This document shows positions 106 through 5,380 of a stretch of 5,380 nt of DNA, in pieces (positions within the stretch are counted from its first letter, which is position 1; each line of letters opens with the position of its first letter). This DNA comes from a virus (taxonomy: Duplodnaviria > Heunggongvirae > Uroviricota > Caudoviricetes): the IMG/VR virus record IMGVR_UViG_2667527898_000018; one strand, 5' to 3'. The notes below the pieces were generated by a model that was not told the DNA's origin, made no database searches, and was given only the letters and a program-made list of their open reading frames with translations. The position numbers were made by a program, and so were the translations under genes.

Positions 106-339
106 TTATGCAGCCGATGCTCTACGCGATACGAACACTAGGTTTTCCTTTTTCACAGGTTTATAACCCGTGAAATTACGAGTAGCTTCTTCGATTGCAT
201 TCGCTTTATCAGGGGAAGCTCTTCGAAATCCATATGCAATCTGGTCAAGATAGCCAACTGAAGTTTTCGCTAATGCGGCGAGTCGCTTCCATTCCTCGCT
301 AGAAGCCTCTTTTCGCCAGCGTAGTAGTTCATTACTCAT
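106..339 (-). CDS. cro: Cro/YdaS-like small HTH DNA-binding protein (77 aa), in the cro position
   Basis: 77-aa ORF divergent from the cI-like repressor across a 113-bp operator region. RBS GGAGG (complement of 345-349) sits 5 nt before the ATG. The product has an HTH-like segment (LAALAKTSVGYLDQIAYGF) followed by RRASPDKANAIEEAT, typical of Cro/YdaS-type regulators. Call rests on position plus family pattern. Confidence 0.7.
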   Translation of the reverse strand: MSNELLRWRKEASSEEWKRLAALAKTSVGYLDQIAYGFRRASPDKANAIEEATRNFTGYKPVKKENLVFVSRRASAA

Positions 340-452: not shown

Positions 453-1157
453 ATGGAAAACAAAGATATTCGCAAATCGAATCTGGCGTTTTTGCTAGAT
501 GAGCATAAAAAAATCGCGGGTAACACTAATGCAAGCTTTGCCGATAAGCTTGGGGTTAGCCCTTCTCAACTCACGCAAGTCTCCGGTGAAAAAAGCACTC
601 GAAACATAGGGGATAAACTAGCAAGAAAATTTGAAGCCGCGCTTGGGTTACCTAATGGGTGGCTTGATTTGGTACATGATGTAACACCAATTGCATCATT
701 CTCAGATTCTTTAACTTTTGTCGGTCAGGTAAGAAAAGGGTTAGTGCGCGTGGTTGGTGAGGCAATTCTTGGTGTTGATGGTGCCATCGAGATGACCGAA
801 GAGCGCGATGGGTGGCTCAAAATTTATAGCGATGATCCAGATGCCTTTGGTCTTCGTGTGAAAGGAGACAGCATGTGGCCCAGAATAAAATCAGGAGAAT
901 ATGTACTCATTGAGCCTAACACCAAAGTATTCCCGGGTGATGAGGTGTTTGTCAGAACCGTTGAAGGACACAACATGATTAAGGTTCTTGGCTATGACAG
1001 AGATGGAGAATACCAATTTACAAGCATTAACCAGGATCACAGGCCTATAACGTTGCCTTATCATCAAGTAGCAAAGGTGGAGTATGTAGCTGGTATTCTG
1101 AAGCAATCTCGCCATCTGGATGACATCGAGGCAAGGGAGTGGCTGAAAAGTTCGTGA
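453..1157 (+). CDS. cI: Phage CI/LexA-type repressor with C-terminal S24 peptidase (autocleavage) domain, 234 aa
   Basis: N-terminal HTH (NASFADKLGVSPSQLTQVSG); C-terminal S24 signature with catalytic Ser in GDSMWP and a downstream Lys (NMIKVLG). Divergent from the cro-like gene across an operator-rich spacer. Confidence 0.9.
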   Translation: MENKDIRKSNLAFLLDEHKKIAGNTNASFADKLGVSPSQLTQVSGEKSTRNIGDKLARKFEAALGLPNGWLDLVHDVTPIASFSDSLTFVGQVRKGLVRVVGEAILGVDGAIEMTEERDGWLKIYSDDPDAFGLRVKGDSMWPRIKSGEYVLIEPNTKVFPGDEVFVRTVEGHNMIKVLGYDRDGEYQFTSINQDHRPITLPYHQVAKVEYVAGILKQSRHLDDIEAREWLKSS

Positions 1158-1237: not shown

Positions 1238-1281
1238 GATTCCCTTTATGGGAAATGAATCTATAATTCCCAAAGAGGGAA
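1238..1281 (+). promoter_or_regulatory. Candidate higB promoter with two palindromic operator-like sites
   Basis: Perfect -10 TATAAT at 1262-1267, flanked by two palindromes of identical architecture TTCCC-N5-GGGAA at 1240-1254 (TTCCCTTTATGGGAA) and 1267-1281 (TTCCCAAAGAGGGAA). No good -35 is evident. RBS-like AGAGGGA at 1274-1280 lies inside the second palindrome. Confidence 0.5.
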
Positions 1282-1293
1282 CAAAATCGGATT

Positions 1294-1581
1294 ATGAAGG
1301 TCTTAAACGTAGAGAAGCTTCACAGTTTTAGCCAGAAGCACAATCAGGCCAAGGGGGCTTTAGACTCTTGGTATGATGAAGTGATAAGAGAAAACTGGAA
1401 AACGACTCAAGACATACGGAATAGATTTAATTCTGCCGACTTCCTTCCTAACAACAGGGTAATTTTTAATATAAAAGGCAATAACTATCGGCTCGTTGTC
1501 CAAGTTGTTTACCAGGCAGGAATGGTCATAGTTGAAAGAGTTGGAACTCATGCAGAGTACGACAAGTGGAGGCTTAAATGA
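1294..1581 (+). CDS. higB: HigB-family type II toxin (RelE/ParE superfamily mRNA interferase), 95 aa
   Basis: C-terminal region FNIKGNNYRLVVQVVYQAGMVIVERVGTHAEYDK matches the recalled HigB pattern (E. coli HigB: FNVGGNELRVV...REVMTHKEYD). Toxin-first gene order is typical of higBA. Stop overlaps the next start in ATGA (1578-1581). Confidence 0.85.
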   Translation: MKVLNVEKLHSFSQKHNQAKGALDSWYDEVIRENWKTTQDIRNRFNSADFLPNNRVIFNIKGNNYRLVVQVVYQAGMVIVERVGTHAEYDKWRLK

Positions 1582-2234
1582 ATCGAACTAGCTGGCGCAT
1601 CATTAAAAATAGTGAAGAGCATGCTGCAGCTATGGAAAGGCTCATTGAACTTGCGTCTAGTGATTTACAACCTGGAACTGAAGATTTTGATGAGTTTGAA
1701 CTACTAGGCTTGCTTATCGAGCACTATGAGTCACGCGAGTTCCCTATGGACAAGCCAGATCCCATAGAAGCAATCAAGTTCCGTATGGATCAACAAGGCC
1801 TCTCTTATGCCGATATGAAACAATACATTGGCTCAGCATCTAAAGTATCTGAGGTCTTAAATCGTAAGCGTCCATTAAGTCTTTCAATGATCCGTAGACT
1901 ACATGACGGACTTGGAATTCCTGCAGATATCTTAATTCAAGATATGAGCGCAATTGAATGGAGCCTAGTTGACGCAGAGGAAGAAGAAACAGCCATGACT
2001 AGCGTCATTGCTCGGTGTGAGTCAGCCGTCACATCACCTTCTGCTTATTTCGCTGAAAAGGCTACAGAATCTTACTTTTCAAAAATGTTGTTCAGCGCAG
2101 TAAGGGGTAACGGCAAATGCAAAGAAAAACGGAATGTTTTTTCTTTGATAAGTAACTTGTCATCAAGTTTCACAGCGGCTAGCAACCTGAATGACGAAAT
2201 GACTTCTGACGGAAATTACTTATTATTACCATGA
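1578..2234 (+). CDS. higA: HigA-family HTH antitoxin with ~96-aa C-terminal extension (candidate chaperone-addiction segment), 218 aa
   Basis: Residues ~67-122 (KFRMDQQGLSYADMKQYIGSASKVSEVLNRKRPLSLSMIRRLHDGLGIPADILIQ) match the HigA HTH as recalled from E. coli HigA (…MDQYGLTLSDLPEIGSKSMVSRVLSGKRKLTLEHAKKLATRFGISPALFID, which ends there). This ORF continues ~96 residues further. Start overlaps the higB stop (ATGA) and its stop overlaps the next start (ATGA, 2231-2234). Confidence 0.85.
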   Translation: MNRTSWRIIKNSEEHAAAMERLIELASSDLQPGTEDFDEFELLGLLIEHYESREFPMDKPDPIEAIKFRMDQQGLSYADMKQYIGSASKVSEVLNRKRPLSLSMIRRLHDGLGIPADILIQDMSAIEWSLVDAEEEETAMTSVIARCESAVTSPSAYFAEKATESYFSKMLFSAVRGNGKCKEKRNVFSLISNLSSSFTAASNLNDEMTSDGNYLLLP

Positions 2235-2635
2235 AAATTGAACTCATTAGCAAAAAAGTTGAACGCTTGGTTATGACACGGCTAGAAGGCGATTCAACAG
2301 CAAAAAAATCCATAAAAACAACCGTTAATCTAAATAATGAACTTTACACTAATGTGAAGGATTCAAAGCTATTTAGAGTGAGATATTTTGCCTCCGTAAC
2401 TATTGAAGGCAGGCTTGAGATGGACATCACATACGACTTTGACTTCCGGTCAGAAGATGATTTTTCTCATGAAATGGCAAAATCATATGAGGTAAGGTCC
2501 ATTGCTCCCAATATGGCATATCCCTATATAAAAACATATGCCGAGCAAATTATCCTCATGTCAAACCTTGGTAGGTTCACTCTGCCTTATTTTGATTTCT
2601 TGGCCAATCCCATGGAAACGAACAGTAATAAGTGA
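2231..2635 (+). CDS. SecB-like chaperone (candidate TAC chaperone), 134 aa
   Basis: C-terminal region SIAPNMAYPYIKTYAEQIILMSNLGRFTLPYFDF aligns with the recalled E. coli SecB segment [33 protein letters not shown] (PN..PY, (R/K), L.P, (N/D)F). Size is close to SecB (155 aa). Translationally coupled to the extended higA. Confidence 0.7.
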   Translation: MKIELISKKVERLVMTRLEGDSTAKKSIKTTVNLNNELYTNVKDSKLFRVRYFASVTIEGRLEMDITYDFDFRSEDDFSHEMAKSYEVRSIAPNMAYPYIKTYAEQIILMSNLGRFTLPYFDFLANPMETNSNK

Positions 2636-2643
2636 AATTCCCC

Positions 2644-2670
2644 ACCCGGCCTCAGCGCCGGGTTTTCTTT
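2644..2670 (+). terminator. Rho-independent terminator ending the cI/higBA-secB transcription unit
   Basis: GC stem CCCGGC (2645-2650) / GCCGGG (2657-2662) with a 6-nt loop, followed by TTTTCTTT (2663-2670), 10 nt after the SecB-like stop. Confidence 0.7.
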
Positions 2671-2772
2671 GCCCCACGTTCGCCCACCTAAAAACACATA
2701 ATCGATTGTATTTATTGAAAAACTGATAGATACAACTTGCTAAACAACGCAATCCAGATCTCCCTCAAATCT

Positions 2773-3141: not shown

Positions 3142-3525
3142 ATGACACGCAGAACTCAGTTCAAAGGCAATTCACGTTCTCGTCGTCGTGAGCGTTTAAA
3201 GGTAAAGGCATTAGCTAACGGCGTACTGGCCCGCGAAGAAGCAATAAGTTCAGAAGTATTACACCGCCCTACTCTAAGCAGAGCGCAGATTCAGGCTAAA
3301 GGTACTCACGAAACGCCTGAGCGCATAGAAGACGCTAAGCCAGTTAAGTTCATGGCACAGGACGTGATCTGGCAGCAGAAAGAATACAGACGCAATCTGG
3401 AGCGAGCGACCATTGTGTACGCGAATGAGTTTGGACATAAGCAACCAGAAACTGGTGTATGTCTTCCAAACGTAGCCATTTACGCTGCAGGCTACCGGAA
3501 ATCAAAACAACTGACAGCAAGATGA
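3142..3525 (+). CDS. N: N-family transcription antitermination protein (P22 gene 24-like), 127 aa
   Basis: N-terminal arginine-rich motif GNSRSRRRERLKVKA resembles the P22 N motif GNAKTRRHERRRKLAIER. C-terminus …NVAIYAAGYRKSKQLTAR resembles the recalled P22 N C-terminus (…VALYAAGHRKSKQITAR). Strong RBS AGGAGG at 3131-3136; first gene after OL/PL and the boxB hairpin. Confidence 0.8.
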   Translation: MTRRTQFKGNSRSRRRERLKVKALANGVLAREEAISSEVLHRPTLSRAQIQAKGTHETPERIEDAKPVKFMAQDVIWQQKEYRRNLERATIVYANEFGHKQPETGVCLPNVAIYAAGYRKSKQLTAR

Positions 3526-3586
3526 CTTGTGTTGGTCGCCAGAAAATGAGATTAGGCAGCAAACCACTTATTTGAGAGGAATTAAT

Positions 3587-4210
3587 ATGTCATCAATCCG
3601 CTTAACTACGAGAATGAAAGAGGAAATCGCTCGTAACGCTTTAATTAAGTCTGGGGTTTTCACTGAACTTGAAGAAGTAACAAAGTTAAAGAACCAGCTT
3701 GCACTTGACGCCAGAGTTATTGCGTTTGGCGGTAAAAAGAAAACTGAGGAAGTGGATCAGTTATCATCCAAGTTGGTAGCTATAAGTGAAGAACTTGAAA
3801 AGATGGGATGTTCATTTTACTCATACGATGTTAGTTCTACTTCAATTTATCTGACTGTATCTGGCAGAAGGGTTGGATGGCATTCATATGGGAAAGACGG
3901 CAACGGCAAAGATATATTGCTCCCTACTCCGACCAAAGATAAATGCATGTTTGACGCAGAGCACGAAATAACAAAAAGGTTTGATGAAATCTGCGCATTG
4001 CAACAAAAACTTGAAGCCAAGAAAAAGGATATCGAATCAAATGTATGGGCTGCTTTAAACTCAGTCACAACAGTTAAGCGACTTATTGAAGTTTGGCCTG
4101 AAAGCAAAGAATTGCTACCAAAAGAAGCAGATAAAGCAAGTACAGCACTTCCTGCTTTACGGGTAAAAGATTTGAATAAAATGATTGGACTTCCTTCCGA
4201 GGCCGCATAG
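3587..4210 (+). CDS. Hypothetical protein, 207 aa (early-left operon accessory gene)
   Basis: ORF track gives 3527-4210, but the ATG at 3587 has an RBS GAGAGGA (3574-3580) with ~6-nt spacing, so 3587 is the likelier start. Hydrophilic, Lys/Glu-rich, no family recognised. Its stop codon TAG (4208-4210) sits in the loop of a terminator hairpin. Confidence 0.6.
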   Translation: MSSIRLTTRMKEEIARNALIKSGVFTELEEVTKLKNQLALDARVIAFGGKKKTEEVDQLSSKLVAISEELEKMGCSFYSYDVSSTSIYLTVSGRRVGWHSYGKDGNGKDILLPTPTKDKCMFDAEHEITKRFDEICALQQKLEAKKKDIESNVWAALNSVTTVKRLIEVWPESKELLPKEADKASTALPALRVKDLNKMIGLPSEAA

Positions 4211-4390: not shown

Positions 4391-4759
4391 ATGTCAAACA
4401 TCAAAAAATACATCATTGATTACGACTGGAAAGCATCAATAGAAATTGAAATCGACCATGACGTAATGACAGAGGAAAAACTTCACCAGATTAATAATTT
4501 CTGGTCAGACTCTGAATACCGACTCAATAAACACGGCGCTGTATTAAATGCTGTATTAATCATGCTGGCGCAACATGCTCTGCTTATAGCAATTTCGCAA
4601 GACTTAAATGCATATGGTGTTGTTTGTGAGTTCGACTGGGATGATGGAAATGGTCAGGAAGGATGGCCTCCAATGGATGGTAGTGAAGGAATAAGAATTA
4701 CCGATATCGATACATCAGGAATATTTGATTCAGATGATATGACTATCAAAGCCGCCTGA
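4391..4759 (+). CDS. Hypothetical acidic protein, 122 aa
   Basis: Clean ORF with RBS-like GAGGA (4377-4381) upstream. C-terminal half is strongly acidic (CEFDWDDGNGQEGWPPMDGSEGIRITDIDTSGIFDSDDMTIKAA). No family recognised with confidence. A weak hairpin AAAGCCGC/GCGGCTTT (4748-4769) spans its stop codon. Confidence 0.6.
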   Translation: MSNIKKYIIDYDWKASIEIEIDHDVMTEEKLHQINNFWSDSEYRLNKHGAVLNAVLIMLAQHALLIAISQDLNAYGVVCEFDWDDGNGQEGWPPMDGSEGIRITDIDTSGIFDSDDMTIKAA

Positions 4760-4834
4760 GCGCGGCTTTACCGCATACCAATAATGCTTCACGAGAGGCA
4801 TTTTCGTTATGCAATCAAATATAAGGAGTTACCC

Positions 4835-4969
4835 ATGATGCACTTTCAGCTCGCGGGTAGCGGCGTCATGTCCGCTTTCTACCCGCACGAATCTGAATTA
4901 TCACGCCGAGTTAAACAATTAATCAGAGCAGCAAAGAAACAACTGGAGGCGTTATGCGCAATGAAATAG
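4835..4969 (+). CDS. cIII: CIII-like small protein (candidate FtsH inhibitor), 44 aa
   Basis: RBS AAGGAG (4823-4828) 6 nt before the ATG at 4835; the longer track ORF from 4784 has no RBS. MMHFQLAGSGVMSAFYPHESELSRRVKQLIRAAKKQL resembles recalled lambda CIII MQYAIAGWPVAGCPSESLLERITRKLRDGWKRL (M-x-aromatic-x-I/L-A-G, then P-x-E-S-x-L-x-R in an amphipathic helix). Confidence 0.6.
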   Translation: MMHFQLAGSGVMSAFYPHESELSRRVKQLIRAAKKQLEALCAMK

Positions 4970-5106
4970 CCATTAATCACCAGATGCTTCGTGCTGCACA
5001 GAACAAAGCAGTAATAGCCCGATTTATTGGTGATTCAAAAATGTGGCTTGAAGCAAATAAAGCGATGAAATCAGCTATCAACCTTCCGTGGTATCGCAGG
5101 AAATGA
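4954..5106 (+). CDS. kil: Kil-like small protein (candidate host cell-division inhibitor), 50 aa; absent from the ORF track
   Basis: My translation from the ATG at 4954 is MRNEIAINHQMLRAAQNKAVIARFIGDSKMWLEANKAMKSAINLPWYRRK. RBS GGAGG at 4945-4949. It overlaps the 3' end of the cIII-like gene by 16 nt in another frame, as cIII and kil overlap in lambda. IARFIGDSKMWLEA resembles the recalled lambda Kil segment IATFIGDEKMFREA. Confidence 0.5.
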   Translation: MRNEIAINHQMLRAAQNKAVIARFIGDSKMWLEANKAMKSAINLPWYRRK

Positions 5107-5178: not shown

Positions 5179-5380
5179 GTGTACTGGCAATAGCGGACAC
5201 TACCATTTGTTCTTTTTTTAAGTAGCTATCTGATGATATTTTTCCCTGAAGGCTGCCGGGGAGATATTCCCCAGACGAGAGTGACGACGCTGACGATTGT
5301 AGAAAATCTCAATGTATTCCCGTATTACTGAGATGGCTTCATCCCGGTTATTAAAACGATAGTAGCTCAGGCTCTCATAT
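5176..5380 (-). mobile_element. IS3-family insertion sequence, terminal inverted repeat and 3' end, continuing beyond the window
   Basis: Plus strand from 5176 reads TGAGGTGTACTGGCAATAGCGGACAC, resembling the recalled IS3 terminal repeat pattern TGATCTTACCCAGCAATAGTGGACAC. The adjacent minus-strand ORF encodes a typical IS3-family OrfB C-terminus. Boundary is approximate (about 5 bp either way). Confidence 0.7.
5218..5380 (-). CDS. IS3-family transposase OrfB, C-terminal 53 codons (partial; 5' part lies beyond the window)
   Basis: My minus-strand translation is …YESLSYYRFNNRDEAISVIREYIEIFYNRQRRHSRLGNISPAAFREKYHQIAT*, with the FYN..RRHS.LG..SP..F motif of the IS3-family integrase-core C-terminus. 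Stop codon is the complement of 5218-5220. Not in the ORF track because it runs off the window. Confidence 0.8.
   Translation of the reverse strand, partial: YESLSYYRFNNRDEAISVIREYIEIFYNRQRRHSRLGNISPAAFREKYHQIAT

Follow-up and report, generated by a model that had tools for sequence, protein, structure and literature searches.

A prophage HigA antitoxin carries a tail that matches the chaperone-addiction segment of the HigBAC anti-phage system

What is the role of a long C-terminal tail on a prophage-borne HigA antitoxin? The 5380 bases analysed here, termed the window, form a lambdoid immunity region of the kind that Stx-converting prophages have. Between cI and N lies a translationally coupled operon, higB-higA-higC (window 1294..2635), in which HigA continues well beyond its helix-turn-helix (HTH) region. 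A preliminary description had proposed that this extension is a chaperone-addiction (ChAD) segment, bound by the product of the next gene. The answer reached here is that HigA residues 122-218 are almost certainly the ChAD of a prophage-encoded HigBAC anti-phage toxin-antitoxin-chaperone (TAC) system, working by a mechanism that has already been published.

The genes of the operon overlap by 4 nt (ATGA) at both junctions, higB/higA and higA/higC (Table 1). Toxin, antitoxin and SecB-like chaperone stand in TAC order, co-oriented and tightly linked, as they do in 26 non-redundant related loci. HigB passes the gathering cut-off of Pfam PF09907 (104.2 bits; cut-off 27). Genes encoding Nmad5 and DUF2528 follow N. 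Compared with phages over its whole length, the window is closest to Stx1a-converting phages (98.6% identity, 90% coverage), and positions 1250-2700 match the DNA of H-19B, ST2-8624, BP-4795 and Stx1a phages at 99.5% identity. The repressor gene is annotated as cI or LexA family in BP-4795, O26 11368 and strain NT1F31, with higBAC directly 3' of it. The module is present in 88 of 5426 complete E. coli genomes, and it sits in the immunity regions of clinically relevant Stx-converting phages: those of the H-19B, BP-4795 and ST2-8624 type, and Stx1a phages of O26/O157.

Table 1. Features of the immunity region, in window coordinates.
Feature	Position	Strand	Basis or remark
cro-like gene	106..339	minus	
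cI-type repressor, LexA/S24 family	453..1157	+	Pfam Peptidase_S24 3.8e-16
Two inverted repeats TTCCC-N5-GGGAA (1240-1254 and 1267-1281), 27 bp apart	1240..1281	+	repeat search
higB, RelE-like mRNA interferase toxin, 95 aa	1294..1581	+	Pfam HigB_toxin 4.5e-30; PADLOC PD-Lambda-2_A 2e-42
higA ORF, 218 aa	1578..2234	+	ATG overlaps higB stop
higA N-terminal domain, residues 1-121, helical toxin-neutralising and HTH DNA-binding part	1578..1940	+	phmmer, AF2
ChAD, HigA residues 122-218 plus stop codon	1941..2234	+	no secondary structure, pLDDT 41-63; ChAD limits of Mets et al. 2024
W128 codon, core of first aromatic motif D-x-x-x-I-E-W	1959..1961	+	sequence; Mets et al. 2024
Acidic run D132-A-E-E-E-E137 (DAEEEE, 132-137)	1971..1988	+	sequence
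F158 codon, second aromatic motif, 30 residues past W128	2049..2051	+	
Hydrophobic patch N186-VFSLISN-L194 with F188 (2139-2141), third aromatic motif	2133..2159	+	Kyte-Doolittle
Y214 codon, fourth aromatic motif, close to the C-terminus (...NYLLLP)	2217..2219	+	
higC, SecB-like TAC chaperone, 134 aa	2231..2635	+	AF2, Foldseek and PADLOC
Intrinsic-terminator-like hairpin (2644..2663; 7 pairs, 6 G-C) with T-run, operon end	2644..2673	+	
N gene	3142..3525		

Where does the HigA fold end? E. coli HigA (138 aa; 5ifg, 5ycl) aligns through its residues 68-135 with window HigA residues 53-119 (phmmer, E 5e-5 to 7e-5) and runs out there, in keeping with the earlier placement of the end of the HTH/HigA region near residue 122. 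Because E. coli HigA reaches its own C-terminus at about window residue 119-120, some 97 residues lie beyond the HigA fold. PADLOC PD-Lambda-2_B matches HigA residues 5-127 (3.8e-50; profile positions 3-125 of 402), and Pfam HTH_3 covers residues 67-118 with 20.9 bits, below its 23-bit gathering score. The tail first marked out at 1944..2234 is real: it spans codon M123 to the stop of the 218-aa ORF. Its sequence had been quoted correctly and its composition is as described, an acidic run followed by hydrophobic/aromatic, Ser-rich patches and a ...NYLLLP end.

One could suppose that these residues have no function and stem from read-through, a frameshift or faulty annotation, and naturally truncated HigA alleles of 189 aa (L098, ending ...RNVFL) and 164 aa (P0057) do exist. 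Set against them is a frame that relatives retain in forms of 218-229 aa across Escherichia, Klebsiella, Salmonella and Serratia, despite many substitutions and in-frame indels; a conserved overlap of the higA stop with the higC start; a dN/dS for the tail that is below 1; and mutants of tail residues with published phenotypes (Mets et al. 2024, bioRxiv 10.1101/2024.02.24.581848). An artefact is therefore scarcely credible. Annotations of O26:H11 11368, phage BP-4795 and strain NT1F31 all include this 657-nt frame, and the exact window protein (identical to WP_001082382.1) is found on at least 1000 contigs. Because dN/dS is 0.25-0.62 in the tail and 0.02-0.03 in the N-domain, the tail is fast-evolving yet constrained, and its value fits a constrained disordered region.

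A frameshift was considered separately, since a length difference of 1 nt (1451 versus 1452) separates the window from its best DNA matches. It was rejected: no gene contains the indel, and the alignment of the operon is 1342:1342.

Is the tail folded? The AF2 model of HigA, made from an alignment of 58 long and short homologues, changes character at the boundary already drawn. Residues 1-120 form seven helices with pLDDT of 81-97; from residue 121 to the end pLDDT is 41-63, and DSSP assigns no elements. The tail's top Kyte-Doolittle 9-mer, VFSLISNLS, includes F188. Disorder-like scores over 121-218 together with this hydrophobic patch at about 187-195 agree with the earlier suggestion of an aggregation-prone segment. 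Indirectly, then, the model suggests that the tail is intrinsically disordered or aggregation-prone, and not a folded domain.

What the tails of related loci share is short. Among the 26 non-redundant TAC tails, 24 open with the motif D-x-x-x-[ILV]-E-W, in which [ED]W occupies tail positions 7-8. All 26 carry net negative charge (-3 to -11). Aromatic residues number from 2 to 12 per tail, and nearly every tail has one within its last 2-6 positions. Tails of separate subgroups are unalignable apart from short motifs; the aromatic motif at each end, like the negative charge, is kept.

These features bear on a different reading of the locus, in which the tail folds by itself into a C-terminal domain with some other function (ligand sensing or oligomerisation, for example) and the SecB-like neighbour is there by chance. 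Long C-terminal additions do occur on the HigA N-domain: a class of about 400 aa, matching PADLOC PD-Lambda-2_B, carries Peptidase_M78/IrrE. The window tail, however, has low pLDDT and no predicted secondary structure, a Pfam search of HigA gives no match within it, and subgroup tails resist alignment. Moreover, NT1F31 HigA deleted for the tail is a fully functional antitoxin (Mets et al. 2024), and the presence of the tail tracks the chaperone gene. A separate folded domain is thus very improbable.

The last of these points comes from a survey of 160 loci with HigA relatives, drawn from genomes and phage contigs and classed by tail length. A chaperone was counted where an ORF matching the HigC HMM stood just downstream of higA, and counts are non-redundant. 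Such an ORF follows higA in 26 of the 30 loci with tails of 40-130 aa; in none of 79 loci with short tails (under 40 aa); and in none of 27 with the Peptidase_M78 fusion (about 400 aa). HigA tail lengths fall into two classes. A scan of one genome per species, which found short and about 400-aa HigAs only and no close long-tailed relatives, serves as the negative set; the positives come from phage contigs. Had the tail been common in chaperone-less higBA loci, the ChAD proposal would have suffered; given 26/30 against 0/79 and 0/27, it is not a common domain of such loci. The survey thereby shows that the link between tail and chaperone holds over a wider set of loci.

In four of the 30 mid-tail loci (L131, L012, L070 and L147) no chaperone could be recognised. 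The downstream ORF of L131 has a weak SecB match. Profile-profile comparisons of the downstream ORFs are not significant for the other three: E 0.15 for L012, which is suggestive; 0.54 for L147; and 0.4 for L070.

As a side observation, the HigA N-domain occurs in three architectures: alone; with a ChAD and a SecB-like partner; and fused to an M78 peptidase, as in PD-Lambda-2_B.

The presumptive partner of the tail is HigC, which had been called SecB-like, and the structural comparison bears this out. The AF2 model (22 homologues; pLDDT 85.8) consists of four long antiparallel beta-strands followed by a long helix. Its best Foldseek match in the PDB is 5mtw, the M. tuberculosis Rv1957 SecB-like chaperone/ChAD complex (TM 0.74, E 5e-7), and next come E. 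coli and H. influenzae SecB (1qyn, 1fx3, 1ozb). The top 19 matches are all SecB or SecB(TA), with TM of 0.65-0.75 and E of 5e-7 to 2e-4. By sequence, HigC has no Pfam match, the gathering score of SecB (PF02556) included, and its closest PDB sequence is an RNA polymerase subunit (E 0.25). A family member, L115 (E 3e-28 to the HigC HMM), scores 28.3 bits to Pfam SecB, where the cut-off is 26. Because HigC itself has no Pfam or PDB sequence match and this relative passes as SecB, HigC is best described as a divergent SecB-fold protein and not a canonical SecB. The assignment rests on the predicted fold, on relative L115, and on a match to PADLOC PD-T4-9_C, the CmdTAC chaperone model (2.8e-11). 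Pocket residues Y39, N41, R49 and D71 are present, and are invariant or nearly so among the 22 homologues.

The tail is in fact already known: it was characterised experimentally in 2024, in a protein that differs by one residue. The E. coli NT1F31 chromosome (3163286-3164627; WP_112844290/289/288) has the cI-higBAC-N order of the window, and because this locus carries the accessions used by Mets et al., the window operon can be matched to the published system. The two operons are 99.5% identical, differing at 7 nt in 1342. HigA is identical at 217 of 218 positions (R185 in the window, Q185 in NT1F31), HigC at 133 of 134 (S27 in the window, T27 in WP_112844288.1), and HigB at 93 of 95 (Q14/I31 in the window, R14/R31 in WP_112844290.1). 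R185 is the common HigA allele; the residue falls within the aggregation-prone patch, three positions ahead of F188. Residues 121-148 show no difference. Judged by sequence, the window allele (HigA R185, HigC S27, HigB Q14/I31) should behave as the NT1F31 allele does; for HigB, with its two different positions, activity is assumed.

The findings for NT1F31 that follow are those of Mets et al. 2024. A lambdoid prophage carries HigBAC after cI, at the position of RexAB, and the system gives defence against lambda-vir and Bas25. Without HigC, HigBA is toxic. The ChAD comprises HigA 122-218, and its deletion makes HigA chaperone-independent. W128, F158, F188 and Y214 are predicted to enter equivalent pockets (Y39, N41, R49, D71) of four HigC subunits; F188 lies in a CamSol aggregation-prone region. 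Rescue by HigC is abolished in the W128A/F158A/Y214A triple mutant and fails with HigC R49A, while the four-alanine HigA variant is stable without HigC. A HigA peptide of residues 121-148 binds HigC with a KD of 1.3 uM, and W128A abolishes binding. The trigger is gpV, the major tail protein of lambda, in competition with the ChAD for HigC: gpV S54P mutants escape, and a gpV 48-78 peptide competes with the ChAD peptide.

Every residue named in that work (HigA W128, F158, F188, Y214 and the Leu-Pro end; HigC Y39, N41, R49 and D71) is found at the same position in the window. The preprint has reportedly since appeared in Cell Host & Microbe. With HigA and HigC this close to the proteins tested, the original proposal of a ChAD stands. 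So does the guess, made from the double length of the tail, that it holds more than one chaperone-binding element: Mets et al. 2024 propose four aromatic motifs, one per HigC subunit. About the tail itself, little here is new; the 2024 work already covers its length, the four motifs, the chaperone partner and the role as a phage-sensing switch.

This suggests the following course of events for the window operon. The disordered tail would make HigA unstable by itself. W128, F158, F188 and Y214 mark four aromatic short linear motifs, at intervals of about 30 residues, by which a co-translated HigC tetramer would capture the tail; HigA would thus be stabilised, and the HigB mRNA interferase neutralised. 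That the tail is twice as long as the M. tuberculosis ChAD would then reflect one binding motif for each HigC subunit. During infection by a lambda-type phage, nascent gpV, with its similar aromatic/acidic pattern, would compete for the same HigC pockets. HigC would be drawn off, HigA lost, and translation stopped by HigB, so that the infection aborts. For the wrap-around geometry of four strands the basis is an AlphaFold-Multimer model and not a solved structure, so it is something that we infer.

How free HigA is lost allows a variant of this scheme, in which the tail is chiefly a chaperone-masked degron: a protease removes free HigA, and HigC hides the signal. The tail would be a ChAD all the same. 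For the NT1F31 proteins, immunoblots show no HigA when HigC is absent, the stability of the four-alanine variant points the same way, and an mNeonGreen-ChAD fusion gives an even, weaker signal with no aggregates; the M. tuberculosis ChAD, too, ends in a ClpXP degron. Yet HigBA stays toxic when clpP, clpX or lon is deleted, or clpPX lon hslVU together, the window tail ends in Leu-Pro (NYLLLP) and not in an Ala-Ala-type sequence, and the F188 patch, as the most hydrophobic part of the tail, fits aggregation propensity. Mets et al. 2024 thus saw neither aggregates nor dependence on ClpXP, Lon or HslVU. Because both are missing, the degron stays a live variant, one to be taken seriously even if the odds are somewhat against it.

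Expression of the operon may be controlled from the interval between cI and higB. The inverted repeats there, 13-54 nt upstream of higB, are probably HigA operators, to judge from their arrangement and recurrence: the pair stands upstream of higB in 19 of the 26 non-redundant TAC loci, with a single copy in the other 7, and across these loci the TTCCC and GGGAA half-sites are kept while the N5 spacer varies. Between the repeats is a TATAAT (1262-1267), a candidate for the operon's own promoter. The palindromes are not mentioned in the scanned parts of Mets et al. 2024.

Some carriers of the module encode the trigger themselves. Two lambda-type carriers, the NT1F31 prophage and 15.03CC, have their own gpV with a trigger region identical to that of lambda; in this N-terminal region W36, S54, D61DED64 and W67 are as in lambda. 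No gpV homologue was found in ST2-8624, in a Stx1a phage close to the window, or in a P22-type carrier.

Because the trigger region of carrier gpV is identical to lambda's, the carrier's own late expression should strip HigC from the ChAD and fire HigB at prophage induction. The words self, lysogen and superinfection are absent from the bioRxiv preprint (10.1101/2024.02.24.581848). The competition between ChAD and trigger for HigC may pose an unrecognised self/non-self problem, either answered by a tolerance mechanism or leaving the module to hold back lytic growth of its carrier. The idea is offered tentatively, as rather unlikely. Tolerance could come from shut-off of cI-linked transcription; from autoregulation through the TTCCC-N5-GGGAA operators; or from timing and stoichiometry. 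Alternatively, the module would brake lytic growth of its own carrier. If a self-trigger exists, the Stx-type and P22-type carriers without gpV, including those closest to the window, would use the module purely against lambda-type competitors. It could also bear on how prophages handle abortive-infection modules at their own induction, since some carriers encode the triggering tail protein.

Several known systems invite comparison. Lambda RexAB occupies the same slot as higBAC, between cI and the PL/N region and co-oriented with cI, and shares its general role as an exclusion module of the prophage that is expressed in the lysogen. The two have no kinship in sequence or mechanism: RexAB is a pair comprising a membrane-depolarising sensor and an ion channel.

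Classical two-gene higBA loci have a homologous HigB and a homologous HigA N-domain. Their short HigAs are 50-65% identical to window HigA over residues 1-121 but end at about 118-135 aa. PD-Lambda-2 (PADLOC) has a homologous HigB and a homologous HigA N-domain, as the PD-Lambda-2_A (2e-42) and PD-Lambda-2_B (3.8e-50) matches indicate; its antitoxin, however, is of about 400 aa, with Peptidase_M78/IrrE in place of a ChAD, and window HigA has no M78 domain. Neither the PD-Lambda-2-type loci (0/27) nor the classical short ones (0/79) have a SecB-like gene downstream.

CmdTAC (PD-T4-9) and MqsRAC (Vassallo et al. 2022; Mets et al. 2024) resemble HigBAC in that a SecB-like chaperone stabilises a ChAD-tagged antitoxin and senses phage. 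Their toxins differ (the ADP-ribosyltransferase CmdT, and MqsR), as do their antitoxin folds. CmdA is short, about 121 aa by its 120AA121 numbering, with an Ala-Ala end and ClpXP dependence; CmdTAC and MqsRAC act on T-even phages, whereas HigBAC acts on lambda and Bas25.

M. tuberculosis HigBA1-SecB(TA), Rv1955-Rv1957 (Bordes et al. 2016; Guillet et al. 2019; 5mtw), has the same trio of HigB, HigA and SecB-like chaperone. There too a C-terminal ChAD with aromatic binding determinants confers chaperone dependence, and the chaperone is the best structural match to HigC, at a sequence identity of 16-17%. The ChAD length given in the preliminary description, about 40 aa, is close to the published last 42-46 residues or so, and other tested ChADs have 30-41 residues (Bordes et al. 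2016, PMC5105189). The M. tuberculosis segment has one primary site and a ClpXP degron end; the higBAC tail has 97 aa, four motifs and a Leu-Pro end, and HigBAC shows no ClpXP, Lon or HslVU dependence. In addition, HigBAC is carried on a prophage and has, for the NT1F31 allele, a demonstrated role in phage defence.

NT1F31 HigBAC itself differs from the window in its surroundings: its prophage is lambda-type with a gpV homologue, whereas the window is closest to Stx1a-converting phages, which are without one. Beyond the residue differences given above, the two are alike: the same operon, in the same place after cI in a lambdoid prophage, encoding proteins of the same lengths.

The HigA amino-terminal domain is found in more than one protein architecture. 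In about 27 non-redundant loci the same domain is fused to a Peptidase_M78/IrrE domain, forming proteins of approximately 400 residues that match PADLOC PD-Lambda-2_B. One HigB/HigA toxin-antitoxin core thus occurs with three different options for its control: no added module; the chaperone-addiction tail (ChAD) together with a SecB-like chaperone; or a fused metallopeptidase. Truncated HigA alleles also occur naturally: P0057, a protein of 164 residues; and that of contig L098, which has lost the last aromatic motif of the tail and is followed by an intact higC chaperone gene.

Two copies of the inverted repeat TTCCC-N5-GGGAA, 27 bp apart, flank a TATAAT hexamer just upstream of higB (see table). 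Among 26 non-redundant toxin-antitoxin-chaperone loci, both copies occur in 19 and only one in the remaining seven; the half-sites are fixed and the spacers variable. This arrangement looks like a candidate HigA operator together with a promoter belonging to the operon itself, which would add to transcription reading through from cI.

The lambda-type prophages of strains NT1F31 and 15.03CC, both of which carry higBAC, encode their own gpV, the major tail protein published as the HigBAC trigger in lambda. These proteins are 97-99% identical to lambda gpV, and all of the published trigger determinants (W36, S54, D61DED64, and W67) are identical. To judge from these residues, gpV made late upon induction should trigger the HigBAC of the same prophage. 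A tblastn search identified no gpV homologue in three other carriers of higBAC: the Stx1a phage LC727891.1, the CUVM3 P22-type prophage, and ST2-8624 (first 50 kb searched).

Features of the window and of related loci (window positions unless a locus is named)
Feature	Position	Strand	Remarks
Inverted repeats TTCCC-N5-GGGAA	1240-1254; 1267-1281
TATAAT	1262-1267
N antiterminator gene	3142-3525		Pfam N_peptide, 1.2e-14
Nmad5 (nucleotide modification associated domain 5) gene	3587-4210		Follows N directly; TTG at 3527 is a possible start; Pfam 1.3e-71
DUF2528 family gene	4391-4759		Early left operon; function not assigned; Pfam 3.7e-46
Two small ORFs	4784-4969; 4954-5106		After the DUF2528 gene
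Open frame	5222-5380	minus	Ends ...RFNNRDEAISVIREYIEIFYNRQRRHSRLGNISPAAFREKYHQIAT and stop; runs off right edge
gpV gene, NT1F31 prophage	L167 29668-30408		NZ_CP045190.1 3141667-3142407
gpV gene, 15.03CC prophage	L169 25588-26328
Truncated higA	L098 2501-3070		IMG/VR contig; 189 aa; C-terminus ...KEKRNVFL
M78-fused HigA-type proteins	L003 2989-4185; also L004, L006, others

In a search of complete E. coli genomes, 808 records matched part of window 1250-2700, whereas the higBAC operon itself is present in only 88 of 5,426. The remaining matches must derive from the sequences that flank the operon, at the cI end and in OL/PL, and the immunity backbone is therefore far commoner than its higBAC cargo.

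At the right edge, the minus-strand open frame looks like the carboxyl terminus of an insertion sequence transposase. The whole-window search matched as many as 43 sites in a single genome, and the alignment to the nearest phages stops at position ~4837; the prophage is therefore probably broken here by an insertion sequence.

Nmad5 is unusual cargo for an early left operon; PADLOC returned no match for this window gene. N differs between carriers: the protein has 127 residues in the window, whereas it is annotated with 149 in BP-4795, with 90 in NT1F31, and as no more than a fragment in O26 11368. The stretch to the right of higC is therefore mosaic among them.
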